DNA from: Candidatus Omnitrophota bacterium
GTDB lineage: Bacteria > Omnitrophota > Gorgyraeia > Gygaellales > Profunditerraquicolaceae
Reading direction: 5' to 3'
Assembly: GCA_043800555.1 (NCBI GenBank)
Contig: JAZDMX010000008.1
Span: 5,340-69,339, forward strand
DNA: 64,000 bases
The position numbers and the translations under genes were made by a program. Under the pieces are notes generated by a model that worked only from the letters and a program-made list of their open reading frames with translations, was not told the DNA's origin and did not search any database. Below, in pieces: positions 10,037 through 46,075 of this stretch. Within the stretch, counting starts at the first letter, position 1. The number at the start of each line of letters is the position of its first letter.

Positions 10037-10111
10037 GGGGGACGTTTCAAAAAAAAGGGGGACGTTTCTACTTTTCTGGCTTTAGGTGCGGGAAAAGTAG
10101 AAACGTCCCCC
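10037..10111. repeat. Palindromic intergenic repeat, locus 2. Partial left arm 10037-10048, full left arm 10057-10076, loop TGGCTTTAGGTGCGG, right arm 10092-10111.
   Basis: AAAAAAGGGGGACGTTTCTACTTTTC...GAAAAGTAGAAACGTCCCCCTTTTTT, a perfect 20-bp stem flanked by an A-run and a T-run. Confidence 0.9.
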
Positions 10112-11813: not shown

Positions 11814-11860
11814 TTTTATCTCCTTTTTAACTTTTATATTCTATCATAGCTTTCATTTCT

Positions 11861-11891
11861 TCCACAACACCTTTATCATCCATAAACCCTG
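11861..11891. repeat. 31-bp direct repeat, left copy, flanking toxin-antitoxin cassette 1 (tccacaacacctttatcatccataaaccctg)
   Basis: It matches 13631-13661 at 27 of 31 positions, with a 23-bp core tccacaacNcctttatcatccat. On the minus strand it encodes MDDKGVVE, the start of a tiny ORF. Confidence 0.75.
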
Positions 11892-12770
11892 TTATTTAAC
11901 ACCTTCCATTGCCATATTAATTCGTTCGAGTGCCTTATCCAAATCGAAATTTTCGCGCTCAGCTGGAGATAGGACGTCGAATAACTCGGTTTTGATGCGA
12001 AAGCGCATATCTTCAATCTCAGTATTTTTACGCCCCATATTGACGGAATATTTCGTTAAATCCAAATCCCCGCCATCTTCCCCTATTTTCTTCTTAAAAA
12101 GTTTAACTACCTCTTTATCCGCAATATTGAATTTGTTGCGGAGAAGAAAATCAAGATCGTAAAAATCGCGCGGGGCAATAGGTTCTCTTAGGGCCGCGGC
12201 GCGAAGTTTCTCGCTTACGATTTCATTAAGAGACAGGCAGGCGGCCTTGCCTCCGTCAAAAAGAGGCTCTCCCGTAAATGGATGCGTATACGTATGATGA
12301 ATCTGCTTTTTTTCTACCGGATCAATAGGGTTAAATCTTAAGCCGACTTCAAACTTAATTTGTCCTTTGTTCGGGCGCAGGGCTGATTGATAAGAAAAAT
12401 AATACACATATTGTTTTGACTCGTCCCTCCCGGGATTTCCAGCGTCAACAATCTTCATATCGAACTGTTCCACAAATTTTGAGATCTTATCCTTTACGGG
12501 TTGGATACATTTTCTCCGCTCTCCTCGGGTCGCCTCATACCGCGGAAGCTTCATGCTAAAATCAAGGTCTTCGCTCAAACGATAATATGCGTAATAAATC
12601 TTATTCAGGCAGGTCCCGCCCTTAAAAACGAGGTCTTCGGTAAGTTCGTGTACCCGGGAAAGGACCAAAGTCAAATAGTAATCTTTCTCCAACAAAGGCG
12701 GCAGAAATCCTTTTTTCTTTGCCGCCCTTTCCAATGTTTTTACAAATTCATCTTTATTTTTGTGAATCAT
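11892..12770 (-). CDS. AbiEii/AbiGii-family nucleotidyltransferase toxin (DUF1814), toxin-antitoxin pair 1
   Basis: The motif FKGGTCLNKIY...RLSEDLDFS is the nucleotidyltransferase signature of AbiEii toxins. I chose the ATG at 12768-12770 (MIHKNKDEF..., GGAGAG Shine-Dalgarno) rather than the ORF-track start at 12857, which would overlap the antitoxin by 104 nt. Confidence 0.8.
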   Translation of the reverse strand: MIHKNKDEFVKTLERAAKKKGFLPPLLEKDYYLTLVLSRVHELTEDLVFKGGTCLNKIYYAYYRLSEDLDFSMKLPRYEATRGERRKCIQPVKDKISKFVEQFDMKIVDAGNPGRDESKQYVYYFSYQSALRPNKGQIKFEVGLRFNPIDPVEKKQIHHTYTHPFTGEPLFDGGKAACLSLNEIVSEKLRAAALREPIAPRDFYDLDFLLRNKFNIADKEVVKLFKKKIGEDGGDLDLTKYSVNMGRKNTEIEDMRFRIKTELFDVLSPAERENFDLDKALERINMAMEGVK

Positions 12771-13554
12771 TGATGATAACTCTCCACTTCTTATTGAGCG
12801 TGCCTTTACGTGATCCGGTAAACGTAGTAACCGCGGTTTTTTTAACGCTATCAACAAGAGGTTTTAGCATGGCTTCCGTAAGGTTCGATTCATCAAGAAT
12901 CAGCCCAATACGTTTCCTCGTTTTTATATTAGGGAATAGCGCGGCATATTCCACCAGCTTTTTAATATCGCATTTCTTTTCTATGACAAATTGCTTTAAT
13001 ACTTCTCCGGCAGTTTTGATTCCGCCAACGGGCTTATTAAAATAAATCAAGTCGATCAATGTCCGTTCTTTGGAACTAATAATGACATCGGCGTCCTTAA
13101 CCTTAATTGTTTCCAGGCCATAAAAACGGCTTTCCGGAATCCTTATGAATTTGTAGGAAATACCACAGATAACCTTTTCTATCCGGATAGTAGTATTAAG
13201 AATGTAAACCGTCTGAAAGAGTTGCTCGGTAAAGCCGTAATAATTGAACAGGGTCGAATAGCCAACGTAATAATTCTTTTTAGGGAAAAAGAGCGGCGGG
13301 ATAAGCAATTCATCGATGCCGGTTCCTTCCGGGCCAGCCTCAAGCGGCGAGAACGCATAGGTGCCGCGTTTAATAGCAGTAAGTATTTTCTTCTTCTTGA
13401 GCCGGAAAACAATCTGTTTTCTATCTGCGGGGGAAAGCTTAAACAGGCGATCGAGATATTCGACTGTGACAATCGTCTTCTTTTCGTATGTTAAACGGGC
13501 GACGATATTGGTCTCAATCGGCCCTAAAGTTTTAGATGTATTATTCGGTATCAT
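12754..13554 (-). CDS. AbiEi-family antitoxin / transcriptional regulator, toxin-antitoxin pair 1
   Basis: 266 aa. The N-terminal winged-helix carries the AbiEi motif LKKKKILTAIKRGTYAF. It lies directly upstream of the AbiEii gene in antitoxin-then-toxin order. Confidence 0.75.
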   Translation of the reverse strand: MIPNNTSKTLGPIETNIVARLTYEKKTIVTVEYLDRLFKLSPADRKQIVFRLKKKKILTAIKRGTYAFSPLEAGPEGTGIDELLIPPLFFPKKNYYVGYSTLFNYYGFTEQLFQTVYILNTTIRIEKVICGISYKFIRIPESRFYGLETIKVKDADVIISSKERTLIDLIYFNKPVGGIKTAGEVLKQFVIEKKCDIKKLVEYAALFPNIKTRKRIGLILDESNLTEAMLKPLVDSVKKTAVTTFTGSRKGTLNKKWRVIINDSQK

Positions 13555-13630
13555 AGGTTATCTCCGGCATAACTTTCGTACCCTTTTTATACATATCAAG
13601 TTTACCACAACTTTTCCCCCTCTCAATCCC

Positions 13631-13661
13631 TCCACAACCCCTTTATCATCCATCAGCTCTG
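13631..13661. repeat. 31-bp direct repeat, right copy, flanking toxin-antitoxin cassette 1 (tccacaacccctttatcatccatcagctctg)
   Basis: See 11861-11891. The minus strand here continues an ORF fragment DKGDNWVVNTFEKISPGSLRKQIKHLERLTELMDDKGVVE... Confidence 0.75.
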
Positions 13662-13779
13662 TGAGGCGCTCTAGGTGTTTTATCTGTTTGCGCAAGCTTC
13701 CCGGGCTAATCTTTTCAAAGGTATTTACTACCCAATTATCCCCTTTATCTCATCTACAATTGTATTTTACCATAATTTT

Positions 13780-16330: not shown

Positions 16331-16945
16331 CTAATTTTGGTAGACCTGCATTAATTCCGCACATATTTTTTCGCTATTAAAATCTCTTATTATCTTATCT
16401 CTGCCAGAGATACTCAGCTTATTATAGTATACAGTATCATTAATCAATGTTTCTATAGCATTCGCTAATTCTTCGGCAGAACTTGGATTGACTAATATTC
16501 CCTCATTGTATCCGACTAATTCCGAAATTGATCCTGTCTTAGTTGAAATAACCGGAATACCATTGGCCATTGCTTCCATTAATGCCACGGGAATCCCTTC
16601 ATGTTCACCAGCCCTTAATACTACACTAGGCAATACAACAGAATCTATATCTCCTTTTTGATACATATCAATTATTTGTTCATGCGGAAGACATCCCTTA
16701 AACTCTATACAGTCAAGCAATCCGTATTTAGTAACTATTGTTTTTAATTCTGATTCCAACGGTCCGGTACCAGCTATAAGATATCTTATTCTTAATGATT
16801 TATGCTTAAGTATACCGCACGCTTCAATCATATAACAATGACCTTTTATTGGCAATAGGTTAGCGGGTGTTATTATAGTAAATATTTTCTTACTTACTCC
16901 ACTTCCTCCTTTTTTATTTAGGCAGAAGGATTCTTGAATACGCAC
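16331..16945 (-). CDS. Family 4 glycosyltransferase, C-terminal domain only (possibly a truncated remnant)
   Basis: 204 aa. The motif EGIPVALMEAMANGIPVIST belongs to the Glycos_transf_1 domain. The N-terminal GT4 domain is missing, and the preceding gene ends 13 bp upstream. Confidence 0.6.
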   Translation of the reverse strand: MRIQESFCLNKKGGSGVSKKIFTIITPANLLPIKGHCYMIEACGILKHKSLRIRYLIAGTGPLESELKTIVTKYGLLDCIEFKGCLPHEQIIDMYQKGDIDSVVLPSVVLRAGEHEGIPVALMEAMANGIPVISTKTGSISELVGYNEGILVNPSSAEELANAIETLINDTVYYNKLSISGRDKIIRDFNSEKICAELMQVYQN

Positions 16946-18303: not shown

Positions 18304-19191
18304 TTATTGCCATATCATTAAAGAGCAGTCTCCAAACAAGTCCACCGCAATACAATAAAAAAACAAATTGAAGTATTTAACTTTATTAGATAAAATTTCG
18401 CGAAGAAAAAGAGCAATACCAACAATAAGATATGATTGAATCATACTTGGACGTAAAATTCCTAAAGCATAACCATATCTTTCATTGCCATAATAATTTA
18501 TTCCTTTATCAATCAAATCATTCGACGAATTAAATATTGGTAACCAACCGCTGGTATCAGAATCATTTTTTTCTAAAATAGTGGATTTACGAAACGTTGG
18601 TAGCTATGTGATTAATTGACCAAAGTGTTTTTTAAATCCGCTGAGCCTTTGACTAAACAACGAATCATTTCTTGGCTGACTGCAAATAATTATTGCTTTT
18701 TCATCACAATTAAACGCCTTTTGCAGTATAACTTTGAACCCCTCAGATGTTGCCAATAGATATGTAAAATAATTATATTTCATGTTTTCGTAACCCTTTT
18801 CAAGATTACCGATAGTTTTTAAAGGCATGCCATGCCAAAGATTAACAACTATCTGGTTATCGCCAGGCTCTATAGGGTATTTACCGAAGCAATAAAAGAA
18901 ATATTTCGATGTAAAAAAATGAAATAATCCTAAAAACTCATTAGTTACAATTACATTATGAAGATTTTTAGACTGTATATCTTTTGATTCATTTGTACTA
19001 CACACTATTATATATCTATTATTAAATCCATTGTCAATTAAATAACCAAAAAGCGCCCTAACATTCTCTCTAAAACCGAAATTCGAATAAAGCATTATCT
19101 TATTAGGCTTCTTCGGAATTATTCGGTTAATAAAATTAAATATTATAAATAATTTTTTTATTAGAGTTCTATGCTTGTTTAGAGTAACCAT
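18304..19191 (-). pseudogene. CDP-glycerol glycerophosphotransferase (TagB/TagF)-like gene interrupted by an in-frame TAG at 18604-18606
   Basis: The N-terminal part ends ...LWHGMPLKTIG...KKHFGQLIT, then TAG. The same frame continues LPTFRKSTILEKND...LMIWQ, matching the TagF family WHGxPxK and PTFR motifs. TAG is a genuine stop codon here, because cdaA and a PilZ gene both end with TAG. Confidence 0.65.
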
Positions 19192-23620: not shown

Positions 23621-24884
23621 AACCCGCTTTAAGTATGCCTTTTTTATGAAGATACAAGAACATCGTCAGCGTAACAAAAGATTCGGTAGTCAGAACTGCC
23701 ACCGCAAGCCCTATGTGTTTGAAAAACGGCACCAGTATCAAGGCAAGTGGTATATTAATAAATCCCGCCGCGATGAGTATTCTTGAAAATGCCTCTTTCA
23801 TATTAAATGTTATCATTGTCTGAATACCAAAGATATTGCTAAGAGCAATTATAAACGGCAGGAAAGCAAGTATTCTCAAAACAGTGATGGATTCTGTAAA
23901 TTGCGCGCCAAGAAGTAATCTCACTATTGGCCCAGAAAGGACGAATATACTCAACGATATCGCAAAGCTTCCTCCTCCAATAATAAAAAGAGCTTTTTTA
24001 ATAAAATGCACAGCCCTTTCTTTTGAATCTGCTACAAGTTTACTTATATGTGGGTAAATAGTCTGTGAAATAGGGTTAAGCAGCTTTTGCCCGCTCTTTA
24101 TTATTCTCTCGGCGGCGCTGTAATAACCGACGATCGTATTATTAGTGAAAAGCCCAAGAATAAAGGTATTACTGGTTGTATAAAGGCTTATGGCTGCAGT
24201 TGAGATAAAGATATGCCATCCATCTTTGAATTCATCCGCTATATCCACAACTGAAACCAGCTTTAGGCGTACATGAAATCTTTTTACGGCGATAGCTATA
24301 CTAAGAATACCTGTAGTTATACCGCCTATTGCGGCTAGAAGCGGAACATAAAAGTAGTCCCCCTGTTTCTTAACAAATACGAATACCGCTACCAAAAAGA
24401 TTGTTTTCGCAATAAGGTTAAGGAATGCTATAAGTTTCATCTTTTCCATTCCCTGAAACAGCCATATCGGGAATAAAATATTGCTTATTACAAAAGCGAA
24501 GCAACAATAATACAATCCCCAGTCGGCCCTGAATTTCGGGATTGAAAATACTAGCGCTGAAAGTATCATAAAACTTAATAACATAAGACAGAATTTGATA
24601 AGCATTACCGAGCTAAAAATACGCGATACCTTTTCGATATCATTACGATGAATTGATACGTTCCTATTCGCGGAGAGGTTAAACCCGTAATCGGTAAGAA
24701 GCACAAAATACTGGACAAATGCCTGCGCGAAGGCAATAAGGCCAAACTTCTCCACCCCGAGCACCCTTACCAGATACGGCAAGGTAATGAGAGGAAATAG
24801 ATAATTCGCCACTTCAACCGATGAGAGGCTGAAGAAATTAGTTATTAATTTCCTTTTATCTTTAGTAAAATTAGTTATGGTCAT
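23601..24884 (-). CDS. wzx: Oligosaccharide flippase (Wzx, MOP superfamily)
   Basis: 427 aa with about 12 transmembrane segments and the polysaccharide-biosynthesis-protein architecture. Confidence 0.75.
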   Translation of the reverse strand: MTITNFTKDKRKLITNFFSLSSVEVANYLFPLITLPYLVRVLGVEKFGLIAFAQAFVQYFVLLTDYGFNLSANRNVSIHRNDIEKVSRIFSSVMLIKFCLMLLSFMILSALVFSIPKFRADWGLYYCCFAFVISNILFPIWLFQGMEKMKLIAFLNLIAKTIFLVAVFVFVKKQGDYFYVPLLAAIGGITTGILSIAIAVKRFHVRLKLVSVVDIADEFKDGWHIFISTAAISLYTTSNTFILGLFTNNTIVGYYSAAERIIKSGQKLLNPISQTIYPHISKLVADSKERAVHFIKKALFIIGGGSFAISLSIFVLSGPIVRLLLGAQFTESITVLRILAFLPFIIALSNIFGIQTMITFNMKEAFSRILIAAGFINIPLALILVPFFKHIGLAVAVLTTESFVTLTMFLYLHKKGILKAGYVHGKI

Positions 24885-24920
24885 AATTTGCGCCAGCTAT
24901 TTGGGTTAGCCCTAGCAATC

Positions 24921-25889
24921 TTACACTATTCGTTCTAATTCGCTTTTCAGTATCGCCTCAAGATCGTATTCTGGCTGCCAGCCGAGAATTGTTTTTGCTT
25001 TTTCGGATGAAGCAACAACAGTTTCAACATCGCCCGGTCTGCGGGGCCCAACAGCATAAGGAACTTCACAATTAGCTGTTTTTGCCGCGGTTTCAATTAC
25101 TTCCAGCACGGAAAATCCAGCTCCATTCCCAAGATTGAATACTTCATTTTCTACGCCTCTTTCAAACGCTGATAGGGCTAAAAGATGCGCTTGGCATAAA
25201 TCCAGGACATGGATGAAATCACGGATGCCTGTGCCATCGGATGTTTTGTAATCTGTCCCGTAAACAGTAAGCTTGCCTTTCCCGCGCAAGGCGCGCATAG
25301 TATTGGAAATCAAATGCGTCGGTTCCGGCCTTCCCTTTACCGGCCACTTGTAACGGGTGTCCCATCCGGCAACGTTGAAATAGCGCAGCGCGATAAACTC
25401 GATACCGCCAGCCTGCGCTGCGTCGGCAAGTATTTTTTCTGACATCAGTTTTGAAGCGCCATACGGGCTTAGGGGGATAGTTGGTTCGTTTTCGGTTACC
25501 GGCATATGTTTTGGCGAGCCATATACCGCTGCCGTTGAGGAAAACACGATCTTACGCGCGTCATGGTCGCGCATAGCCTGCAAAAGGTTCAACGTGCCGC
25601 CGACGTTATTGCGGTAATACATAACCGGCTCTTTCATCGATTCAGGAACCACGATTTTTGCCGCAAAATGCATAGCCGCGTCAATATGGAATTTGTCAAA
25701 TACGCGCTGAATTGCCGGGAGAGAACAGAGGTCGCCTTTTACAAAGCGGGCCTTCTTTGCGATCCAGGGTTTGATGCCGGTTGAAAGGTTGTCAAATATC
25801 ACAACTTTATGCCCGGTTTCAAGGAGCATACGCGCCATATGCGCTCCGATGTATCCTGCTCCTCCGGTAACAAGGATTGTTTTTTTCAT
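24921..25889 (-). CDS. galE: NAD-dependent UDP-sugar 4-epimerase (GalE-like)
   Basis: TILVTGGAGYIGAHMARMLLETGHKVVIFDNLSTG with the YxxxK short-chain dehydrogenase fold. Confidence 0.85.
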   Translation of the reverse strand: MKKTILVTGGAGYIGAHMARMLLETGHKVVIFDNLSTGIKPWIAKKARFVKGDLCSLPAIQRVFDKFHIDAAMHFAAKIVVPESMKEPVMYYRNNVGGTLNLLQAMRDHDARKIVFSSTAAVYGSPKHMPVTENEPTIPLSPYGASKLMSEKILADAAQAGGIEFIALRYFNVAGWDTRYKWPVKGRPEPTHLISNTMRALRGKGKLTVYGTDYKTSDGTGIRDFIHVLDLCQAHLLALSAFERGVENEVFNLGNGAGFSVLEVIETAAKTANCEVPYAVGPRRPGDVETVVASSEKAKTILGWQPEYDLEAILKSELERIV

Positions 25890-25903
25890 AGGTTTACTTT
25901 AGA

Positions 25904-25968
25904 TAAGGCGTATATTTATCAACGGTTTTCCGGTAATTCCTGCTATAAGGCTTAAGCTCAAGCGCCTG
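25904..25968. repeat. Cassette-boundary direct repeat, copy 1 (65 bp; the most diverged)
   Basis: taaggcgtatatttatcaacggttttccggtaattcctgctataaggcttaagctcaagcgcctg. Homologous to 28087-28169 and 29682-29764. Confidence 0.85.
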
Positions 25969-26313
25969 AGCAAGTCGGGTAAAGATGCCCTCTATCTAAC
26001 AATTCAAATTTATCTGCAAGCATAGAAATAATCAGACTTAATCAATCCGCATAGCCAATGGCTGAGGATACCAATTTAATCGTCCATCCGTCGTTTTGGC
26101 GGTCATGAAGCGGACGAGTCGTTGTTTAACAAAAGGTAAAAAAGGAATCGGTCTGTACTGAACAACCACAGCTATGTCAGCAAAACTAACGGGACTAATA
26201 TTAAACTGCCTCAAAGGGAATCTGACAGTATATTTATCAGTGTTTTAGCTTCACTGCCATTATGCCTTTTGGCCTGTTATAAAACTACAGGCCATGGTTT
26301 TTCCCCTTCTGCG

Positions 26314-27345
26314 TCAAACTGCGCAGTTTATTCCATTAATTTGTTCTTCGATGACCCGCAGTTTTTCTATAATACGCTCAAATGACGGTGGCTCTTCAAA
26401 AAACATTTGCTGCATCTGGCGGTAATCATTTTTCAGTTGGTTCATTTGATCATCGCGGGGCACTAACCGTAAACTACCCGCGCTTGCTTTATCGTAGCGC
26501 GCCCGGTTATCTTTAAAAAACAAGGATTTATGCTCAGAAACATGTTTCAATAACGATATGTTTTCCAGAGCCCGTTTATATATAGGCGATCCTGCCATCG
26601 CGTATACATCATAATAATGCCGTGACATTCGCAATGGCACATTTTTTTCAGGCGGATAATGATATATCATATGCAAAATTGTCGCTTTCTCCCAAAAAGT
26701 CCGTTCCGCGGCTAAAACACGCACAGAAGCCCCTGTAATTGACTTTTCACCGAGAATACCTGCAATATATGGAATAGCTACGGCGGTTTCAACCGGCCAA
26801 TGGTCAGACCGGGCGCCAAATTCAATTTTGACTGAAGGCCTTACATAGTTTTCGCTAACGCCCGACATAGCCTGAGGAAAAGTAAACAAAACCGTTTGCC
26901 TATCCGCATCATCCTGAGCCAGCTCAGTCCCCCACTCTCCGTTATCAGAAAGGACTGCCGCGATCGCCTGCTTTAAATCAGGAAGAATAATTTTATCAAT
27001 TTTCATCTTGCAAGCCACTTGCAATTCTTTAAGCCTTTTTTGGTTTTCCTTATTGCTCTTTCCTCTATCCGGTTCGGTAACCGCCGTATTTGACAAAAAC
27101 AGCCGCTCTATCGAGATATCAATATCCTCCGAAAAACGCTTAATAACATTAAAACATTTCGAGAGAGATGTCCCTCCTTTAAAAGTCAAATGCGCGCTAA
27201 TCTCCGGCAATGAAAAAAGGATTTTTAGTATCCAGCATACCCAAAAATCTTTTTCAACCAATTGCGGCATTATGCCTAAATTAGCCGCGGCTGCTTCAAA
27301 GTACGCGCGTTTATCTTTATTCGATAGTAATGCAAATTTATTCAT
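26314..27345 (-). CDS. AbiEii/AbiGii-family nucleotidyltransferase toxin (DUF1814), toxin-antitoxin pair 2
   Basis: 343 aa. The motif FKGGTSLSKCFNVIKRFSEDIDIS is the AbiEii signature. Confidence 0.85.
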   Translation of the reverse strand: MNKFALLSNKDKRAYFEAAAANLGIMPQLVEKDFWVCWILKILFSLPEISAHLTFKGGTSLSKCFNVIKRFSEDIDISIERLFLSNTAVTEPDRGKSNKENQKRLKELQVACKMKIDKIILPDLKQAIAAVLSDNGEWGTELAQDDADRQTVLFTFPQAMSGVSENYVRPSVKIEFGARSDHWPVETAVAIPYIAGILGEKSITGASVRVLAAERTFWEKATILHMIYHYPPEKNVPLRMSRHYYDVYAMAGSPIYKRALENISLLKHVSEHKSLFFKDNRARYDKASAGSLRLVPRDDQMNQLKNDYRQMQQMFFEEPPSFERIIEKLRVIEEQINGINCAV

Positions 27346-27351
27346 AATTTT

Positions 27352-27951
27352 TTAGTCCTGCAGTTGCCTAAATACCGGCCCTATCCACGCAGGGGCATAG
27401 CGAAGATCGCGCATAAGACGGCGCTTATCGTTTCCGGTCAATCTTTTTTTAAGTATTCCTATTATTTTATCATCCGCATGGCCTTTTCCTAAATACCGCA
27501 AAGCCTGAATAACTAAACCGCTGATATTCCCGGCAGCCGCCATATTCTTGGGTGTTGTCCTTTTTAAAATAATCTGCTGTTTTTCAACCTGAACTATCCT
27601 GTTGGCGCCATCGGTTAAGAAAACAATTTTCGCCGGCACCTGCTCGGTTAAGCCCAGAAGATTGGCGGCGTATGCCCCGGAAGGCTGAATTTTCAAGTTA
27701 TCCCTTCCCGCTAATGCTTGAGCGATGCGTTCATAATTCGCGGGCAACTCTCCCAATACGGGATGCTTCTTCGGGTAATCATACAAACCGCGCGCGAGCC
27801 GCCGGATAGCGCCGGAGATTGCTAAACGCTCTAAAGCCTTAGCTACTGCCGCGCGGCTTCCAAGGTCAAAAAAGTGAGCTGGAGTAAATACCCAACCCCT
27901 CTTTTTACCATGAATTCTGCTAGCTACTCTATTATCGACATATTTTATCAT
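27352..27951 (-). CDS. DUF6088/AbiEi-like antitoxin, toxin-antitoxin pair 2
   Basis: The motif GWVFTPAHFFDLGSRAAVAKALERLAISGAIRRLARGLYDYP is the AbiEi-like winged-helix. I chose the ATG at 27949-27951 (MIKYVDN...). The ORF track extends to a TTG at 27999, which lies inside the operator palindrome. Confidence 0.7.
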   Translation of the reverse strand: MIKYVDNRVASRIHGKKRGWVFTPAHFFDLGSRAAVAKALERLAISGAIRRLARGLYDYPKKHPVLGELPANYERIAQALAGRDNLKIQPSGAYAANLLGLTEQVPAKIVFLTDGANRIVQVEKQQIILKRTTPKNMAAAGNISGLVIQALRYLGKGHADDKIIGILKKRLTGNDKRRLMRDLRYAPAWIGPVFRQLQD

Positions 27952-27968
27952 AATATCAACCTTTTTCC

Positions 27969-27998
27969 TGTCGCAAAAAGTATATACTTTTTGCGACA
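27969..27998. promoter_or_regulatory. Perfect 30-bp palindrome TGTCGCAAAAAGTATATACTTTTTGCGACA overlapping the -10 element of the pair-2 promoter; putative autoregulatory operator
   Basis: A TTGACA -35 element at 28002-28007 sits just upstream (minus strand), and the palindrome contains the TATATA/TATACT -10 candidates. Confidence 0.6.
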
Positions 27999-28086
27999 AA
28001 ATGTCAAGTATTCTTTCTTCTTGGCCGTTTCGCTGCTGCGGAGGCGGCTGGTGTTAGGAAAACCAGGGGACAGGCCCAGGGTTTTC

Positions 28087-28169
28087 CTATTTTAAGTAAG
28101 GCGCGTATTTATCAACGATTTTCCGGTAATTCTGGCTATAAGGCTTAAGCTCAAGCGCCTGGGTTAGCT
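28087..28169. repeat. Cassette-boundary direct repeat, copy 2 (83 bp)
   Basis: ctattttaagtaaggcgcgtatttatcaacgattttccggtaattctggctataaggcttaagctcaagcgcctgggttagct. The stop codon of toxin 3 (28164-28166) lies inside the repeat. Confidence 0.9.
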
Positions 28170-28967
28170 AAGTAAGTTAATGAAGGTTTCCGGGGCAAGA
28201 AGCTCAAGCTCATTTTGATCCTCAAGAAACCTCCTGACTTCATCCCTCACTTTTTCCCAGTCTAAAGTTTTAACAACTTTCTTAATTTCCTCTTTCCAGT
28301 TTTCTGGAGTAAACTTAAGCGGCTCTTTAAAAGTTTGAGCCATGGCATTGTTCAACATAATGTAATTAGGCTCTACATCTTTAAATTTAGACAAATACCA
28401 GATCAAATCATACCAGTCCCTTCCCTTGGTATATTTCCGGCACAATAAAGCGTGAATCTTTCCGGCGAATAATGATTTAAGGTCATAATGCAGGATATAG
28501 AACATAAACGGAGAATTAACCATAGTATGCGCTTCAACTCCTCCTGCGGGAGGGCGAGAGTCGATTTCTACTTTAATTAAGAACTTTTCATCTTTCAGCG
28601 GGCTTAAACCGTTTTCAAGCAGAATACCGGAAAATTTCAACAAAGCGCTACTTACCGCCAGATGCGTTTTTGTTTTAATCTCTAATGAGTAGCCGGCCTG
28701 TTTAAACTCCTGCGCGATATCGCGCATCATCGCGTTAAAATCAATCTGTTTAGCTCTGGAAGAAAGGCTAAAATCAATGTCTTCGGAAAACCGCTTAATC
28801 CGGTAAATAAAGCGCAAGGCCGTGCCTCCCGTAAAAACCATTTCTTGGTAATATTTTTTGCGATAAAGGACATACAAAAAATACGCCTGAATATATTCGC
28901 GGATACGGTTTAGGTTATCATCCGCGGACGCATTTTTATTTACGATTGATTTAATGTAGCCTCTCAT
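28164..28967 (-). CDS. AbiEii/AbiGii-family nucleotidyltransferase toxin (DUF1814), toxin-antitoxin pair 3
   Basis: 267 aa. The motif FTGGTALRFIYRIKRFSEDIDFS is the AbiEii signature. Confidence 0.85.
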   Translation of the reverse strand: MRGYIKSIVNKNASADDNLNRIREYIQAYFLYVLYRKKYYQEMVFTGGTALRFIYRIKRFSEDIDFSLSSRAKQIDFNAMMRDIAQEFKQAGYSLEIKTKTHLAVSSALLKFSGILLENGLSPLKDEKFLIKVEIDSRPPAGGVEAHTMVNSPFMFYILHYDLKSLFAGKIHALLCRKYTKGRDWYDLIWYLSKFKDVEPNYIMLNNAMAQTFKEPLKFTPENWKEEIKKVVKTLDWEKVRDEVRRFLEDQNELELLAPETFINLLS

Positions 28968-29605
28968 TAGATTTTTACGTACTCCCGCGCTTCAAGTTTA
29001 ACAAAATCAATAAATGACCGGCTGGCTTTTCTTACTCTGCCGGGGTATGCCTGGCTAAATTCGTGGAAACGTTTGAGTTTAAGGATCTCCAGGTTCTGGA
29101 AGCGGAATGCCTCAAACTCTCCGGGAGCGCCTTGAACATGTTCACGGAAATAGAAGAAATCCAAAATGGCTTTTTCCGGCAGAGCAATGAAAAAATCCTG
29201 ATTATTAGCTGAAACTTTGGTAAAACCGGAAAACAAGCTTTCCTTTACAGAACAATACTCAAATCTGCCCAAAGCATTAGTAAACGTCTGGGTTTTTTTG
29301 GGCGTGACTGAACTATACACAGTAACTTTTTCGGGAATAAGGTCATAGTAGCCAAGCGCGTATTCAAGGCTCAAATATGAAGGCATAACAAGGTAATTGG
29401 CAATGAATCGCGGTGAAGGCGCAATCTTGCAGTAAGTATCGCTAAAGACGTATACGCCTTTCTTGAGTTGAAGAAGGTAGCCTTTTTTTACCCATCCGCT
29501 TACCTGCCGCCTGATATCCGCGAGACTTTCATCTAGCATAGCAAAACTTGATGAGTCAATAATCGCGTTATCGCCGAAGTTTTGAAGGAATTCGTCAAAT
29601 TTCAT
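28967..29605 (-). CDS. AbiEi_4-type antitoxin, toxin-antitoxin pair 3
   Basis: 212 aa. The AbiEi motif is WVKKGYLLQLKKGVYVF. Its stop overlaps the toxin start by 1 nt. Confidence 0.75.
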   Translation of the reverse strand: MKFDEFLQNFGDNAIIDSSSFAMLDESLADIRRQVSGWVKKGYLLQLKKGVYVFSDTYCKIAPSPRFIANYLVMPSYLSLEYALGYYDLIPEKVTVYSSVTPKKTQTFTNALGRFEYCSVKESLFSGFTKVSANNQDFFIALPEKAILDFFYFREHVQGAPGEFEAFRFQNLEILKLKRFHEFSQAYPGRVRKASRSFIDFVKLEAREYVKI

Positions 29606-29681
29606 TTCTTTTCTCTTTATTGATATTTTTATCTATCTACAGAAACAAGTATACCACAAATCATCTCTTTTTCAAGCCCCC

Positions 29682-29764
29682 TTATTTTAAGTAAGGCGCG
29701 TATTTATCAAAGATTTTCCGGTAATTCCTGCTATAAGGCTTAAGCTCAAGCGCCTGGGTTAGCT
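29682..29764. repeat. Cassette-boundary direct repeat, copy 3: the native 3' end of CDS 29682-30026
   Basis: On the minus strand this sequence encodes the last 26 codons of that gene, LTQALELKPYSRNYRKIFDKYAPYLK*. Confidence 0.9.
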
Positions 29765-30026
29765 GGGTAAGGATGAGTTTGCGCGTCAGGGCGTTAGGCC
29801 TGGGGTTCTGCTGGATTAAATCCAGGGCATAGAGCATATGATACACGGCTTTTGCAGGCTCTGCCTCTATCGCCTTGGTTAACTGGCCTTTCCGGTAATA
29901 ATATTCAGAGTCTATCGGGTTTAAAACAGGAGTTAATAAGCAACTGGCGTAAATGACGCTTAAAATAAGTATGATAATCTTGGTTTTCATAAGCAGGTAA
30001 AATTTAAAAATCGGGCCGGACTTCAA
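29682..30026 (-). CDS. Hypothetical small secreted or membrane protein
   Basis: 114 aa. N-terminal hydrophobic segment, with helical-repeat character. Its 3' end is the template for the duplicated 83-bp repeat. Confidence 0.4.
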   Translation of the reverse strand: MKSGPIFKFYLLMKTKIIILILSVIYASCLLTPVLNPIDSEYYYRKGQLTKAIEAEPAKAVYHMLYALDLIQQNPRPNALTRKLILTQLTQALELKPYSRNYRKIFDKYAPYLK

Positions 30027-30441
30027 TTTTTGCTACCGGCTTGTGCGTTGATTTGCCATCTTTCATTAGAAAACCGAAATTGCCCTCGGTTAAGCCCTGC
30101 TGATTATTTTTCCGCCAGATCTCCCTCTTGACCTGTTTAATAGCTTCCTTTAATTCCGTTAAAGAATGCAGCCTTGCCTCCAGAACCGCTTTTTCTTGGA
30201 GCAGCTTTTGGTTGTCCCTGCGCGATTCCGTAAGCCTAATATTAACTTTATCCAGCTCTATCCTGGTTTTATCCAGCTCCTCCTGCGCGGCGAGAAGTTC
30301 CTGCGACAGATTAACATTAAGCAGGCGCTCTGAATCCAGCTTTGCCCGGGTATCCTTAAGTTTTATAGCCAGCCACACAGATACGCCGGCTAACAAGAGC
30401 ACAAGGAATATTATTACTATTCTGATTATTGTTTTCTTCAT
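30004..30441 (-). CDS. Membrane-anchored coiled-coil hypothetical protein
   Basis: 145 aa. N-terminal transmembrane segment, then a long coiled coil (LDKTRIELDKVNIRLTESRRDNQKLLQEKAVLEARL). Confidence 0.4.
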   Translation of the reverse strand: MKKTIIRIVIIFLVLLLAGVSVWLAIKLKDTRAKLDSERLLNVNLSQELLAAQEELDKTRIELDKVNIRLTESRRDNQKLLQEKAVLEARLHSLTELKEAIKQVKREIWRKNNQQGLTEGNFGFLMKDGKSTHKPVAKIEVRPDF

Positions 30442-30444
30442 CTC

Positions 30445-31881
30445 TTAATTTATTTTCCTTAGCGTAAATACATATAAGCGCGTAAAATAAACCAAAAACC
30501 CTATGATAAAAAGCAGGCCGATAACTCCGGTTTCCGAGGCAAGCTGCAGGTAATCGCAATGCGCGTAGCGTAAAAATTGCCCTCTCCATTCATGCGTGCG
30601 GTATTTGGGGAAAATTGAAGGGAACGTCCCGAACCCTGTGCCGGTAAGCGGAAAATCCCGGGCAATCTTTAAGGTGTCTGACCACATATCCGGCCGCATT
30701 TCGCTTAAAACCGCCGGTTCATGGATGACCGAGCGGATAATTTTGTTTAATTGCCTGAATTTCGCGTAAGTAGCGTCGGGCCCGATCCAGTATGAAATTA
30801 GCGCGCTTAAGCTGACGGCTAAGGCAAAAAAGAACGCCAGCCTCCCTCTCCTGTTTTTGCGCGCCCGTATGATTATAACGAAAAGGAATACCAGTTCCGC
30901 TATGATAAAGCTGATTATCCCGCCGCGCGATGAGGAATAAAAGATCGAGCCGGACATAATGATCGAATAAAACAGGTAGCTTATTGCCCGGCTTGCTTCG
31001 CTTGATGAAAGCCAGTTTAGCTTATTGCGGATGCCTTTAATCAGGAAAAACGATGAAAACCGCGCCTCTGCCATGAAAAATGCCACTGCCAGCCCCGCGC
31101 ACATCCCCATATAGCCGGCGTAGTGGTCGTAATTAATATAGGGCCCAAAATGGCTGCCATCTTTCTTGATCAACCAGTAAATTTTATGACTGCCGCTTAA
31201 TTTATGCGCAATCCCGAATACGGCAATAATAAATCCGGTCAAGATTATGGCGTTGATAACCTTATAGATAAATTTCCGGTCAATCCTCTGGTTTTTAGCG
31301 TTTAAGGCTGCGGCTAAAGCAAAAAGGACGCTGAAATAAAAGGCATTGGCGCAAATATGCAGGTTAAAGTCAACAAGGCTATGTATGAGTATTGCCAGCA
31401 TGCCGGTAAGGCAGCCGAGGCAAAGATACGCCATTTTTCTTTGCCCGGTTTCGTTATCTGCCGTAGAGTTACCCGCTGAAAACGCCCGGAAAAGTACCGT
31501 AACGAATATAAAACCGTAACTGATAAGCTTGATAAGCTCGGTAACCGATAGCCACGGGTAAATGCTAATAGGCCGCCAATTGCCGGTTTGTGAGTATGCC
31601 AGCGAATATTCGGCGTATAATTTGTAAGTGGCAGGGGAAACCAGCTTTAAAAGCGGCTGGGGAAGCGGGATAAGCTGGAATAAGAGATAAGCCAGAAAAA
31701 CAGCCGATAGGGCAATAACCGGAAACAAAAAAAGCTTTTTAAGGCTAAAACCCGGAGAGAAAACCGTAAGGTTGAACAAAATGAGCGCGGCCAGGGCAAA
31801 AAGAGTAATTGTCCAGGGTTGCGTCGCGCCCAAGGCAAGGGGCAGGAAGCATAACAATAATATTAGTAGGGTGTCTATCAA
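30445..31881 (-). CDS. O-antigen ligase family membrane protein (Wzy_C domain)
   Basis: 478 aa, polytopic. The motif HCDYLQLASETGVIGLLFIIGFLV belongs to the Wzy_C domain. Confidence 0.65.
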   Translation of the reverse strand: MIDTLLILLLCFLPLALGATQPWTITLFALAALILFNLTVFSPGFSLKKLFLFPVIALSAVFLAYLLFQLIPLPQPLLKLVSPATYKLYAEYSLAYSQTGNWRPISIYPWLSVTELIKLISYGFIFVTVLFRAFSAGNSTADNETGQRKMAYLCLGCLTGMLAILIHSLVDFNLHICANAFYFSVLFALAAALNAKNQRIDRKFIYKVINAIILTGFIIAVFGIAHKLSGSHKIYWLIKKDGSHFGPYINYDHYAGYMGMCAGLAVAFFMAEARFSSFFLIKGIRNKLNWLSSSEASRAISYLFYSIIMSGSIFYSSSRGGIISFIIAELVFLFVIIIRARKNRRGRLAFFFALAVSLSALISYWIGPDATYAKFRQLNKIIRSVIHEPAVLSEMRPDMWSDTLKIARDFPLTGTGFGTFPSIFPKYRTHEWRGQFLRYAHCDYLQLASETGVIGLLFIIGFLVYFTRLYVFTLRKIN

Positions 31882-33564
31882 CTATGCCTTCTTCTCCTTG
31901 TTTTTGCCGTCTTTAGCGTAGTGGTAATAATGGTAGTAGGCGTGATAGCCGAATTCTTCGGCTTTGAACATATTTAAAACGACGCCCAGGACATTTGAAT
32001 GCACGGAGCGGATGAGCTTCACTGACCTTAAAGCCGCCTGCCTGTGGGTAGCCCCTGCCTTAAACACCAGTATGCAGGCGTCAACTTTGGTGGAAAGTAT
32101 CACTGAATCGGTTGCTGCCAATACCGGCGGCGTATCAAAAATGATCCGGTCGTAGTTTTTGAGGAATTCCTGGATCAATCCTTCGATTTTCTTAGAACCC
32201 AGCAATTCCGCCGGATTAGGGGGGATAATCCCGCTGGGGAGGAAATCAAGGTTACTGATGCCGGTTTTCTTTATATGGGTTTTTATATCCAGGTTGTCGT
32301 AAGCCAGAAGCTCGGTGATGCCTCCGGCGTTAGAAACATTGAATACGTTATGCAGCGTGGGTTTACGCAGGTCCGCGTCAATCAGGATGACTTTTTCCCC
32401 GAACTGGGCAAAGACTGTCGCCAAATCCACCGCGGTGGTGGATTTACCTTCCCCGGGGGCGCAGCTGGTAACCATAATTACCTTTTTGCTTAAATCCGGG
32501 TTGCTGTAAATTATGTTGGTGCGTAAACCCCGGAAGCGCTCGGCAAACGCGGAATTATTTTCTTTGGAGCAAACAAGCGCAGGCGCGCCATTTTTTCCTT
32601 CTTCCGGAGCATAAACCGGAACGGTAGTCAGGCACGCCAGATGCAGGAAGCCTTCGATATCGGATTGCAATTTGATGCTCTGGTCCATATTCTCCAAAAG
32701 GAATACAACCCCTATCCCTATTCCTGCCCCCAGGAAAAAGGCCAGTAAGAGGTTCAAGAAGAGCCGCGGCCTTACCGGCTTTAAGGGAAATTCCCCGGCG
32801 TCCAGTATCTTGACGTTGGTGATCTTCTGGCCTTCTTTGATAAAACTAAAGGCGGATGTGGTGGAGGCGAATAATTTCTGTTTCTCTCCGCTTATCTTGG
32901 CGTTAATTGCGTCAATTTCCGATTGCAAACCCTGAATAATGGGGTGTTTATCCTTCAGGTATTTCAGGTTTTGCTCGATATCGGATTGAAGCTCTGCTTT
33001 GCGCTGGATGAATTGATCCAGCGAGGAATACACGATGTAGGCGTCTACCCAGGTATTGGCGATTTGCTCGGCAAGCTGCGGGTTAACGTCTTCGGCGCTT
33101 ATCTCGATGATCTGGGTCATCCGGACAGGCGTGATTTTTACCGTTTTTAAGAGGGCATTAACGCGCTCATCCCGGGTGATCTCTCTTGCTTTTCTCGGCC
33201 TGCCGCGCAGGTTGCCCCAGGGCTGGTAATCCCCCAGCTCGTTAAAAACCAAATTAGCGATGGAATGGCTTTTTAAGACTTCGATTTGCGAATTGTAGTA
33301 GTTGGCGCGGTCAGTGTAATCGGGGAGGACAGTCTCTTCTACTTTGACGATTTTAGGGGGCTTGCCTTCTATCATAATCCGCGCGGTGGATTTATACACC
33401 GGCCTATTGATACAAGAGTATAATAAGGCTAAAATTACGCAGATTAATATGGTATTTCCAATGAGACGGCGCTGCTTAAAGAGCTTTTCGTAAATCTGGC
33501 GCAGGTCAATCTCCAGGGTTTCTTCTTTTTGCAAGTATTCTTCTTTAACGGGTTCGCCGGTCAT
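31882..33564 (-). CDS. Polysaccharide co-polymerase / bacterial tyrosine autokinase (Wzc-like)
   Basis: 560 aa. N-terminal Wzz-type chain-length-determinant region with two transmembrane segments and a coiled coil, then a C-terminal P-loop ATPase with TSCAPGEGKSTTAVDLA, IDADLR, and a C-terminal tyrosine-rich tail YHAYYHYYHY. Confidence 0.85.
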   Translation of the reverse strand: MTGEPVKEEYLQKEETLEIDLRQIYEKLFKQRRLIGNTILICVILALLYSCINRPVYKSTARIMIEGKPPKIVKVEETVLPDYTDRANYYNSQIEVLKSHSIANLVFNELGDYQPWGNLRGRPRKAREITRDERVNALLKTVKITPVRMTQIIEISAEDVNPQLAEQIANTWVDAYIVYSSLDQFIQRKAELQSDIEQNLKYLKDKHPIIQGLQSEIDAINAKISGEKQKLFASTTSAFSFIKEGQKITNVKILDAGEFPLKPVRPRLFLNLLLAFFLGAGIGIGVVFLLENMDQSIKLQSDIEGFLHLACLTTVPVYAPEEGKNGAPALVCSKENNSAFAERFRGLRTNIIYSNPDLSKKVIMVTSCAPGEGKSTTAVDLATVFAQFGEKVILIDADLRKPTLHNVFNVSNAGGITELLAYDNLDIKTHIKKTGISNLDFLPSGIIPPNPAELLGSKKIEGLIQEFLKNYDRIIFDTPPVLAATDSVILSTKVDACILVFKAGATHRQAALRSVKLIRSVHSNVLGVVLNMFKAEEFGYHAYYHYYHYAKDGKNKEKKA

Positions 33565-40953: not shown

Positions 40954-41835
40954 TTAGACTACCTCTAAACTCATATCTACCGCTTTAACCGAATGCGTCA
41001 GTTCACCGATTGAGATAATGTCTATGCCCAGGGCAGCGATTTTTCTTACCGAATCAAAACCCACCCCGCCGCTAGCCTCAAGCAGCGTGGGAGGATGATG
41101 GCTTTTGAATTCGGTATTATCGCGGATCTTTATGGCCTCTTTCATATCCGCAAGGCTCATATTATCCAGCATGATCACATCCGGCTTGAAATACAAGGCA
41201 TGCTTGAACTCATCGAGGTTTTGCGCCTCGATTTCGATTTTAAAGCCTTTGGGGACGCTGGGCAGTTTTTCATAGCCTTCGGTAACTTTAAGATGGTTAT
41301 CTTTTATCAAAATCATTTCATCCAGGCCCATGCGGTGGTTATGGCCTCCTCCGATGCGCACGGCATATTTCTGCAATTCCCTTAATCCCGGGAGGGTTTT
41401 GCGGGTATCGGTAATCTTGGCTTTATAAGGCTCGATATGCTCGACGTATTCCCTTGTCCGGCTGGCTATTCCGGAAAGCATGCTTAAGAGGTTTAAGGCA
41501 ACCCTCTCTGCGCTTAAGATGCTCGAGGCTTTCCCTGAAATTTCCACGATGGCGTTACCCGCCTTGGCTTGCCTGCCTTCCTTGGCCAAAGCTTTAAATT
41601 TAACCGAAGGGTCCACCGACTTGAAAGCCTTTTCCGCTACGTTTATGCCGCAGATAACGGCCTTTTGCTTGGCTATGATTTTTGCTTCGATTGTTTTATC
41701 CTTGGGAATAGTCAACTGCGTAGTAATGTCCCCTCTGCCGATATCTTCGATTAACGCCTGGCGCACGATATGATTGAGCTTTTCCATGTCCAGCTTCGGT
41801 TCTGCTTCAGAAAGAAAATATTTACCTAAGGCCAT
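40954..41835 (-). CDS. nadC: Nicotinate-nucleotide pyrophosphorylase (carboxylating)
   Basis: 293 aa with quinolinate phosphoribosyltransferase family motifs (LDNMSLADMKEAIKI, GGV). Confidence 0.9.
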   Translation of the reverse strand: MALGKYFLSEAEPKLDMEKLNHIVRQALIEDIGRGDITTQLTIPKDKTIEAKIIAKQKAVICGINVAEKAFKSVDPSVKFKALAKEGRQAKAGNAIVEISGKASSILSAERVALNLLSMLSGIASRTREYVEHIEPYKAKITDTRKTLPGLRELQKYAVRIGGGHNHRMGLDEMILIKDNHLKVTEGYEKLPSVPKGFKIEIEAQNLDEFKHALYFKPDVIMLDNMSLADMKEAIKIRDNTEFKSHHPPTLLEASGGVGFDSVRKIAALGIDIISIGELTHSVKAVDMSLEVV

Positions 41836-44511: not shown

Positions 44512-46075
44512 TTAACGTTATCTTTTAAAAGTTTATACTCGATACTGTCAACCAGGGCCTGCCAACTGGCTTCGATGATGTTCTCCGATACGCCGATGGT
44601 ATTCCAGCTCTCTGATTCATCGTGCGATTGGATCAAAACCCTTACTTTCGCGGCCGTTCCCGCTTTCTCATCCAGCACGCGCACCTTGAAATCAGAGAGG
44701 CGCATTTTGGAAAGCGTAGGATAGAAATCTTTTAACGCTTTGCGCAAGGCGTTATCCAGGGCATTAACCGGGCCGTCGCCGTCGACGGCAGTATGTTCTT
44801 TTACGCCTTTTACCTTAATCTTGATGATCGCTTCGGTAGTAATCTGCTTATCGGATTTCTTTTCGATTACCATGCGGAATCCTTCCAACTCGAAGAATTT
44901 CTTGTATTTCTTAAGCGCGCGCTTCATCAGGAGCTCAAAAGAAGCTTCGGCGGCTTCAAAATGATAGCCTTCATGTTCCAGTTTCTGCACGAGCTTGAGG
45001 ATCTTTTGGGTTTTCGGGTCATCTTTCTTTAAATCCAGGTCCATATCTTTGGCGCGGACTAATACCCCGGTTTTGCCGGCAAGTTCGGAAACCAGGACCT
45101 TGCGGCGGTTCCCGACTAACGCCGGATCGATATGTTCATAGGTCCGGGGGTTCTTCATGATCGCGTTGATATGCATCCCGCCTTTATGCGCAAAACTTGA
45201 TTCGCCGGTATAGGGTTGGTCTGCGCGCGGCTTCATATTGCTGATTTCGCTCACAAAATGCGAAACATGGGTTAGTTCTTTTAGCTTGTCGCCGGAAATG
45301 CAGTCAATCGACATTTTCAGCTTGAGGTTGGCGATTATGGGTATTAAATCCGCGTTTCCGCAGCGCTCGCCAATGCCGTTAATCGTCCCCTGGACGATAT
45401 CAGCGCCCGCTTCCACCGCAGCCAGGGAATTGGCGACAGCCAGCCCGGCGTCGTTATGGCAGTGGATCCCAAGGCTAACCTTGATCCTGGATTTGGCAAG
45501 AGCGGTTATATCAAGGACTTCGGATGTCAATGCCCCTCCGTTAGTATCGCACAGGCAGATTGCTTTTGCCCCCGCCTCTTCGGCGGCGATAATAGTTTTT
45601 AAGGCGTATTCGCTGTTTTTCTTATAGGCGTCAAAGAAATGTTCCGCATCGTAAAAAACAGTTTGCCCCTTGGAAACCAAAAATCCCACCGTATCCTTAA
45701 TCATCTCCAGGTTCTCGTTAAGGGTGGCCTTTAACACATCGGTTACATGCAAATCCCAGGTTTTGCCACGATAGTGATAATCCCGGCCTGCGATTTAAGC
45801 AGGGCCTTTATATTGGGGTCCTGGGAAGCTTTTGAGTTGAGCCTGCGGGTCATGCTGAAGGCGCAAAGCCGGCTGTTTTTTAGCCTGATGCCGGGCATCT
45901 TCAGGAAGAATTCCATATCTTTAGGGTTAGAACCGGGCCAGCCGCCTTCGATATACTGGATCCCCAATAGGTCCAATTCTTTGGCAATATTGACCTTATC
46001 CATTACCGAATAAGAAATTCCTTCTCCCTGCGCGCCGTCGCGCAGCGTCGTATCGTATATTTTTACCTTTGCCAT
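44508..46075 (-). CDS. 2-isopropylmalate synthase family / (R)-citramalate synthase-like protein, disrupted by a 1-nt frameshift at an A-run (45762-45765) and read as two ORFs: 45743-46075 and 44508-45752
   Basis: The N-terminal ORF is [19 protein letters not shown]...[11 protein letters not shown]. Its frame ends ...[12 protein letters not shown], while the other frame reads [23 protein letters not shown]. Adding one A restores [14 protein letters not shown]-terminal LeuA_dimer-type region is present. Confidence 0.8.

Follow-up and report, generated by a model that had tools for sequence, protein, structure and literature searches.

Two AbiE operons lie between copies of a gene 3′ end at an insertion hotspot in an Omnitrophota polysaccharide locus

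We analyzed 64,000 nt of a Candidatus Omnitrophota metagenome-assembled genome (MAG; assembly GCA_043800555.1, contig JAZDMX010000008.1, positions 5,340 to 69,339), referred to as the window herein, in which two AbiE-type toxin-antitoxin (TA) operons lie in tandem downstream of a small gene that we call gene X. A repeat search of positions 24000 to 32000 returned a single strong repeat family with three direct copies of 89 nt each (25895-25983, 28088-28176, and 29683-29771), at spacings of 2193 and 1595 nt. In this search copy 2 was 94% identical to copy 3, and copy 1 was 82% identical to copy 2. An earlier note, made from the sequence, had reported three direct copies of a gene end at this place, and they are indeed far beyond chance: the 64 kb contain three occurrences, and no more, of the 27-nt core CAGGCGCTTGAGCTTAAGCCTTATAGC, where chance would give none, and the same is true of the 36-nt right half of the repeat. 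All copies contain the 8-bp palindrome GCTTAAGC and end exactly on a stop codon (TAA, TAG, and TAA for copies 1, 2, and 3). As the same note had recognized, the third copy (T3) is the authentic 3′ end of gene X, TAA included, and the other two (T2 and T1) are displaced. Compared over 90 nt, T2 and T1 agree at 73 positions, and the longest identical runs between any of the window copies measure 27-43 nt. Divergence from T3 rises with distance from gene X (Table 1), so that T1 is the most diverged copy, as had been claimed, which fits its being the oldest of the displaced ends.

Every gene in the array region is on the minus strand. Read in that direction, gene X with T3 is followed by a promoter and an AbiEi/AbiEii pair (cassette 1), then T2, a GC hairpin and a second promoter, a DUF6088-type AbiEi/AbiEii pair (cassette 2), 330 nt of spacer, T1, and galE. 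The repeats therefore delimit two units with one antitoxin-toxin operon each and, again in agreement with the earlier note, Pfam and PADLOC assign the two pairs to different subfamilies. Adjacent same-strand AbiEi and AbiEii genes, the latter with PF08843, were found in both array cassettes and in a third pair elsewhere in the window. The gap between antitoxin and toxin genes is 7 nt or less in both array cassettes (position 28967 in common; 27352 versus 27345). The two best sigma-70-like matches of the region lie one before each antitoxin, and the cassette 1 sequence that begins at the -35 box and runs up to the ATG is conserved in homologous cassettes at loci L008, L009, L012, and L013. The AbiEi protein of cassette 1 had no Pfam match; its AbiEii partner has 2238 homologues, many of them labelled Omnitrophota. 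Antitoxins homologous to that of cassette 2 are 198-199 aa long. The palindrome TGTCGCAAAAAGTATATACTTTTTGCGACA that overlaps the cassette 2 promoter is a likely AbiEi operator, and AbiEi proteins are described as autoregulating through inverted repeats (PMC7319586).

One claim about the array did not hold, namely that the stop codon of the 267-aa toxin is built from the repeat. A toxin at locus L008, 85% identical to it, has the same ...FINLLS-TAA end beside an unrelated repeat, and the stop codon is therefore native. It follows that positions 28161-28176 are native toxin end and that T2 proper starts right after the toxin TAA, with its left edge at ∼28160. At this edge the toxin end and gene X share a microhomology of 11 out of 13 positions.

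Table 1 Features of the AbiE array and of the third AbiE cassette in the window
Feature	Coordinates	Strand	Basis and remarks
Gene X, anchor gene, 102 aa from ATG	29682..29990	-	ORF and translation; last ∼28 codons are the repeated unit
T3 (repeat copy 3), functional gene X 3′ end including TAA	29682..29771	-	
Cassette 1 promoter-like site	29648..29675	-	TTGAAA-16-TATACT with TG; -35 box starts 7 nt past gene X stop
Cassette 1 AbiEi antitoxin, 212 aa	28967..29605	-	PADLOC PDLC02241, E = 2.4e-49
Cassette 1 AbiEii toxin, 267 aa	28164..28967	-	PF08843, E = 7e-31; PADLOC PDLC02293, E = 9e-73
T2 (repeat copy 2), displaced gene X end	28088..28176	-	84/90 identical to T3; homology proper from ∼28160
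Terminator-like GC hairpin and T-run, directly after T2	28063..28079	-	
Cassette 2 promoter-like site	27969..28007	-	TTGACA-17-TATACT; overlaps the 30-nt perfect palindrome TGTCGCAAAAAGTATATACTTTTTGCGACA
Cassette 2 AbiEi antitoxin, DUF6088 type, 199 aa from ATG at 27951	27352..27951	-	PF19570, E = 3e-47; PADLOC PDLC02226
Cassette 2 AbiEii toxin, 343 aa	26314..27345	-	PF08843, E = 1e-37; PADLOC PDLC02289, E = 1e-103
Spacer between cassette 2 and T1, 330 nt	25984..26313	-	No recognisable gene
T1 (repeat copy 1), displaced gene X end	25894..25983	-	77/90 identical to T3; frame still open; pseudo-stop 4 nt before galE ATG
galE-like epimerase	24921..25889	-	Pfam Epimerase, E = 3e-64; opens variable half of polysaccharide locus
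Third AbiE cassette (AbiEi 12754-13554, AbiEii 11892-12857)	11850..13662	-	Pfam, PADLOC; listed ORFs overlap

The product of gene X has a hydrophobic N-terminal segment, matched no Pfam family, and is identical to NCBI P0001, a 102-aa hypothetical protein from a Candidatus Omnitrophota MAG. Besides P0001, only five relatives were found among 5.8 billion proteins, and in species-representative genomes none of 169 pattern matches was confirmed. The relatives keep gene X downstream of a Wzy_C gene, which is also its setting in the window. By Pfam, a beta-barrel porin gene and then Wza, Wzc, and the Wzy_C protein lie upstream of the array, and galE, Wzx, UDP-galactopyranose mutase, glycosyltransferases, and a second Wzy lie downstream. 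The array thus does split a surface-polysaccharide locus, as had been proposed, and its site is the junction of the conserved export genes with the variable sugar genes.

The prediction that occupancy of this site should vary among relatives, empty sites included, held. At locus L001, where gene X is 80% identical, wzx follows gene X after 168 nt with a single gene end, i.e., the site is empty. Two independent assemblies with a 64% identical gene X, L002 from JGI and L003 from ENA, carry a comparable array in which gene X is followed by a 66-aa gene, a helix-turn-helix (HTH) protein with a 276-aa partner, a YhaV toxin with an upstream PrlF-like partner, and then sugar genes; in L002, the promoter-like intergenic sequence 3′ of gene X recurs in copies of 95 nt and 40 nt that mark off the units. 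On the P0005 contig, gene X is followed by a 276-aa gene and AbiEii, another AbiE-type pair. Lastly, the gene X homologue of L014 (53% identical in amino acids and 59% in DNA) is followed by an AbiE operon of the cassette 1 family with 78.5% DNA identity, and behind this operon the host's own gene X end is repeated over 98 nt. An exact-protein look-up of the window's galE for sister contigs with other occupancy returned no record. The comparison of these relatives supports the gene X 3′ end as a genuine insertion hotspot with variable occupancy. In L014 we also noted an 18-nt motif, G(A/G)CCGCGGGGT(T/A)(C/T)CAG(G/C)C, on both sides of the AbiE operon (∼530-560 and ∼2095-2115), inside the duplication of the gene X end, with a third, similar copy near the antitoxin start.

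The architecture is not confined to gene X. Units bounded by direct repeats of an intact target gene's 3′ end were found in the window and likewise at L014, L008, and L013. Locus L008 is syntenic with the window (porin, Wza, Wzc), and at 3689-8709 an epimerase gene and two AbiE pairs lie between four to five diverged 3′-end copies of a 61-aa HTH_17 gene; of the two pairs, the first is 85% identical to cassette 1. This HTH_17 gene has an excisionase-like fold; the copies at 4985-5110 and 8599-8709 are preceded by GGAGGA and TTG and, given these start-like signals, might still be translated as ∼35-aa peptides. At L013 (AbiE 87% identical), the end of an Omp85-type gene is followed by an AbiE operon, a Pol-beta nucleotidyltransferase pair, a Fic gene, another AbiE operon, a Gp49/HTH pair, and a remnant of the Omp85 end, beyond which lie a homologue of a 145-aa protein of the window and an HTH_17 gene accompanied by partial duplicates of it. 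Five cassette borders of L013 (582-606, 2195-2219, 3326-3350, 4541-4565, and 6843-6867) carry the 25-nt site AATTAAGTAWTGTGTCCCCGGAATT with sharp edges and 24-25 of 25 positions identical. Its arms, AATTAAG and CGGAATT, form an imperfect inverted repeat, and it is a candidate recombinase core site. The site also occurs once in L002 (4373-4397) and is absent from the window and L008.

Further loci extend the range of anchors. At L103 (2855-9169), two tandem AbiE pairs lie beside a DndB gene and an MmeI-like type IIG restriction-modification gene, and the second pair, which belongs to the cassette 2 family, stands between 127-nt repeat copies of the latter gene's promoter region. At L083, a 215-nt flanking repeat covers the end of a major facilitator superfamily transporter gene. 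In roughly ten contigs, drawn from several samples (L093-L099, e.g., L093 429-6029), the TraU and TraH genes have immediately downstream of them a DUF6088/AbiEii pair that is 80% identical to cassette 2, and because the pair adjoins these genes we place it on a conjugative element. The window repeat itself is a local gene end, and not a dispersed element, an attC site, or a portable signature. Only the three copies exist in the window and the repeat core had no exact match in species-representative genomes, where 25 nt of it were queried, or in viral contigs, so that the repeat is not the ordinary dispersed element of repetitive extragenic palindromic (REP) or miniature inverted-repeat transposable element type that would have undone the earlier note's reading; a search of viral contigs for AbiEii also found none. 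A GATAA-like word that seemed common to the repeat families was seen by eye only, is no more than AT-rich sequence gives, and was dropped.

The association of AbiE operons with flanking repeats was surveyed in 47 AbiE operons from metagenomes by aligning the 450 nt upstream of the antitoxin with the 450 nt downstream of the toxin (local alignment score >20, z >8), with 452 mock inserts of the same size at the same loci as control. Long flanking repeats were found for 8/47 AbiE cassettes compared to 1/452 controls (Fisher p = 3e-8), an enrichment of ∼80-fold. Three of the eight positives are palindromic REP-like elements and five are copies of neighbouring sequence, 30-215 nt in length, among them the transporter gene end at L083; without the REP-like cases the count is 5/47 (Fisher p = 3e-5). 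Intergenic elements of this palindromic kind, which are not target copies, are present in L015, L016, L020, and L026 and were counted separately. That about one AbiE operon in six has long flanking repeats of local sequence, against ∼1 in 450 controls, is a general observation that can be tested elsewhere. The lone control positive is a DUF4143 ATPase gene flanked by apparent partial tRNA copies. At L056, a single DUF4143/AAA_14 ATPase gene (3095-4342, minus strand) lies between tRNA-like 95-nt direct repeats at 2920-3014 and 4827-4921, a single-gene unit with att-like repeats and no integrase.

A third AbiE cassette in the window (Table 1) has its own 43-nt direct repeat, with copies at 13620-13662 and 11850-11892 that are 81% identical, and the downstream copy begins at the toxin stop codon. 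This cassette, the sole match in a window-wide control scan for flanking repeats, lies at the far end of the same polysaccharide locus between Bac_transf and SurA-like genes.

How the copies differ from each other bears on how they arose. The ratio of nonsynonymous to synonymous differences per site (pN/pS) was 0.34 for T3-T1, 0.20 for T2-T1, 0.21 for L014, and 0.12-0.21 for the copies of L008 (whose pS is 0.6-0.97), values that rest on 15 to 32 codons and are hence indicative only. If one copy had been made in place and had then decayed neutrally, neutral change would make up about half of the divergence, giving an expected pN/pS of at least ∼0.55. The older copies differ mainly at synonymous sites, which suggests that they diverged as working gene ends and therefore that one copy of each pair was imported with its cassette from another lineage rather than duplicated in place. 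The older repeat copies thus look like imported alleles. None of the ∼15 repeat pairs that we compared is identical, and the copies in L014 and L008 agree without interruption over no more than 12-17 nt at a stretch. Such runs are short for RecA-dependent recombination and typical of a site-specific core, and would favour the latter; the sharp 25-nt site of L013 likewise favours a site-specific enzyme over RecA. The runs of the window copies would allow either.

We lean toward tandem accretion at the gene X 3′ end by att-type recombination, with a recombinase acting in trans, as a moderately probable explanation. The course of events that we infer, from crossover to order of arrival, would be as follows. 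In the ancestral state galE would have stood directly after gene X, as T1 still precedes galE. A DUF6088-type AbiE operon would have arrived on DNA that also carried a diverged version of the ∼28 terminal gene X codons, and a Campbell-type single crossover, attP × attB-like, would have joined it to the chromosomal gene end, so that gene X thereafter ended in the imported copy and the resident end, T1, moved downstream to its place before galE. The operon with the 212-aa and 267-aa proteins would have entered likewise, displacing T2 and creating the present end T3, and the newest unit would therefore adjoin gene X. An order of divergence in which T1 is apparently oldest and the newest unit stands beside gene X is in keeping with serial integration at a gene 3′ end. 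Integrative elements that target gene ends behave in this way: they bring a substitute end, shift the resident one away and, when integration recurs, pile up with the latest arrival beside the gene, as has been described for cis-mobilisable elements (PMC5704250), Dehalococcoides ssrA islands (PMC3146451), and tycheposons (bioRxiv 10.1101/2020.12.28.424599). Each unit appears to be a complete addiction or abortive-infection operon with its own promoter, and loss of a unit would be counter-selected, making the array stable. Since the units encode no recombinase, the enzyme would have to act in trans, as an integrase encoded at another place in the genome or by a helper element. This would make the units cis-mobilisable; they may be minimal by nature, or they may be what is left of larger integrative or conjugative elements once all but the addiction module is gone. 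In the latter case the modules would have outlasted the larger elements through genome streamlining and the cost of TA loss. An AbiE system is reported to stabilise an integrative and conjugative element (ICE; PMC11062541), and together with the homologue of cassette 2 beside TraU and TraH we count this in favour of accretion.

Several observations weigh against that explanation. The Pfam scan, which covered the minus-strand ORFs of at least 120 aa, i.e., the likely genes of the 64-kb window, found housekeeping or polysaccharide genes and no integrase, resolvase, transposase, or fragment of one, as the earlier note had remarked of the integrase. Nor was an integrase or integrase fragment found in the ∼20 repeat-bounded units examined, and described accretion arrays usually retain some. 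A decayed integrase was considered for the spacer before T1, where the only ORF, of 58 aa, had no Pfam match; no further search for one was made there. The units are very compact, in that the -35 box starts only 7 nt past the gene X stop and the toxin stop directly touches the next repeat, which would be odd for randomly decayed elements. T2 and T3 differ at 6/90 positions with no synonymous bias. One cassette family occurs with several unrelated repeats, which would need either many integrase specificities or a mechanism blind to sequence. Finally, cassettes of the cassette 1 family at L009 and L012 have no flanking repeat, and repeat flanking is therefore frequent and not universal.

A rival explanation is that homologous recombination acted alone, with the repeated gene end serving as portable homology and no dedicated recombinase. 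A donor segment of gene X, T, cassette, and T′ could enter by two crossovers, with gene X as the site of the left one and the right one joining donor T′ to recipient T, or a circle produced by T × T recombination could re-enter by a single crossover, and arrays would grow and be shuffled by RecA-dependent exchange at the border of conserved export and variable sugar genes. The lack of a recombinase in the window and the units examined agrees with this, as do a repeat that is always local sequence and differs between genomes, T copies that are more alike within one genome than between genomes, window runs of 27-43 nt that are enough for RecA, and a site at the conserved/variable junction of the polysaccharide locus. 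We nevertheless consider it doubtful. It leaves the origin of the first flanking duplicate at a new site unexplained, the L014 and L008 copies, with divergence under purifying selection that probably preceded insertion, would have offered too little identity for RecA in their 12-17-nt runs, and the sharp-edged 25-nt punctuation of L013 is more like a recombinase site than a stretch of homology. A further alternative is illegitimate insertion with a long target duplication made in place, whether by staggered breaks, microhomology-mediated template switching, or homology-facilitated illegitimate recombination, in which both copies would derive from the recipient. Repeat lengths that vary from 30 to 215 nt in unrelated sequences, the 11/13 microhomology exactly at the left edge of T2, and the near identity of T2 and T3 without synonymous bias all suit it, but the older pairs have pN/pS values of 0.12-0.34 where at least ∼0.55 is expected, no pair among the ∼15 is identical, the microhomologies at the other junctions are only 1-4 nt, and two independent insertions would have to have struck the same nucleotide right after the gene X stop. 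We regard it as improbable.

Compact, tandem, same-strand cassettes, each with a repeat after it, call to mind an integron-type array or a cluster of attC sites lacking an integron-integrase (CALIN), the repeats being attC sites, and TA cassettes are typical of large chromosomal integrons (PMC11023631). This explanation is very improbable because the repeats show neither folding nor the architecture of attC sites: on either strand they fold no better than shuffled sequences (z of +1.2 to +1.7 for copies 2 and 3 and ∼0 for copy 1), and they are the coding 3′ end of a host gene with no inverted-repeat architecture beyond an 8-bp palindrome, as the earlier note had observed. In addition, every cassette has its own promoter, and the ORFs scanned in the 64 kb included no IntI-like protein. 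That the window comes from a metagenome-assembled genome also raises an artefact in which strain variants with different cassettes were chained across a common repeat. This is hardly credible, since the copies differ and their longest common runs (27-43 nt) are below typical final k-mer sizes, alternative cassettes would give a bubble in the assembly graph and not a chain, the junction of toxin end and T2 is unique sequence, and equivalent arrays are present in the independent assemblies L002 and L003 as well as in L008, L013, and L014.

Beyond att-type accretion at gene X, a broader proposal is possible, which we offer tentatively. Single TA or defence operons may be the mobile units of an integron-like cassette system that uses gene-end sites (gene X, HTH_17, Omp85-type), is punctuated by that end or by a short core such as AATTAAGTAWTGTGTCCCCGGAATT of L013, and adds new cassettes at the anchor through a recombinase encoded outside the cassettes or by a recombinase-free route, with AbiE operons as frequent passengers across phyla. 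Should the units prove minimal by nature and mobilised in trans, they would give small-genome bacteria a cheap, integron-like route to gather and exchange TA and anti-phage operons with no integrase per element, and would account for the grouping of such operons at fixed boundaries of surface-polysaccharide loci, which are under phage selection. Even on the more ordinary reading, the array would be a clean natural example of addiction modules outliving their carrier elements, with displaced gene ends that record the order of arrival.

Elsewhere in the window, several features stand apart from the array. Positions 1-3400 contain no complete ORF among those listed and read by eye as a long minus-strand ORF that leaves the window, with YD/RHS-like motifs (...YTYDKLGRL...). 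Valyl-tRNA synthetase is in two ORFs (41822-44511 and 44508-45752 are among the segments affected, with 16331-16945 and 18604-19191), a LeuA-like gene is without its N-terminal part, and two glycosyltransferase ORFs are of fragment size; these split or short ORFs are frameshifts, pseudogenes, or MAG consensus errors. At 10030-10068, AAAAAAAGGGGGACGTTTC occurs in two exact tandem copies, 20 nt from start to start, and resembles GGGGAC-type palindromic intergenic elements near cassettes in L015, L016, L020, and L021. An Rfam scan of the window returned four tRNAs only, none near the array; these minus-strand genes (52361-52435 and 56445-56731), three of them clustered, have no associated repeat or cassette.

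With respect to known systems, the earlier note had read the array as a possibly novel type of insertion hotspot for defence cassettes. The hotspot and the serial insertion are supported, but a new element type is not, as the repeat is a local gene end and the array follows the pattern already described for accretion at gene ends. In the literature searched we found no report of stand-alone, repeat-bounded AbiE operons, of their enrichment for flanking repeats, or of TA arrays in Omnitrophota, which is not proof of novelty. The cassettes themselves resemble AbiE type IV TA/abortive infection systems (PMC3985639), which are bicistronic with a winged-HTH AbiEi antitoxin and a DUF1814 nucleotidyltransferase AbiEii toxin; the promoter palindrome of cassette 2 agrees with such systems, as does the role of AbiE as known cargo that stabilises integrative elements (PMC11062541). 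Integrons and CALINs share compact tandem cassettes, often TA, each with a repeated site and the newest next to the anchor; unlike them, the array has no IntI that we could find and no attC hairpin, its repeats are host coding sequence, and each cassette has its own promoter. Similar in layout are the tycheposon arrays at Prochlorococcus tRNA genes (bioRxiv 10.1101/2020.12.28.424599), in which successive integrations at the same site push older elements deeper, partial copies of the target gene separate the elements, and the host genome is streamlined; tycheposons, however, carry tyrosine recombinases, leave remnants with fragmented integrases, and target tRNA genes instead of the end of a protein-coding gene.

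The ssrA islands of Dehalococcoides (PMC3146451) likewise lie in tandem downstream of a single-copy gene, with direct repeats of its 3′ end between them and a number that varies by strain, and some of their units have been proposed to be cis-mobilisable. Their repeats are 20 bp, the islands are several kb long, and sixteen have a serine recombinase module, whereas the repeats described here are ∼90 nt of protein-coding sequence and come with no integration module. The cis-mobilisable elements (CIMEs; PMC5704250), e.g., those related to ICESt1 at fda of Streptococcus thermophilus, are alike in that the gene stays intact, internal repeats delimit units that have no integration genes, and a newer element enters at an att site containing the gene end. 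Unlike CIMEs, the units described here are single TA operons of 1.5-2.1 kb with no integrase or fragment in any unit or in the 64 kb, no helper element is known, and the same architecture stands at several anchor genes within one phylum. Taken together, what is unusual about this array is that its units are single operons, that no recombinase is seen, and that the arrangement recurs at several anchors in Omnitrophota polysaccharide loci.

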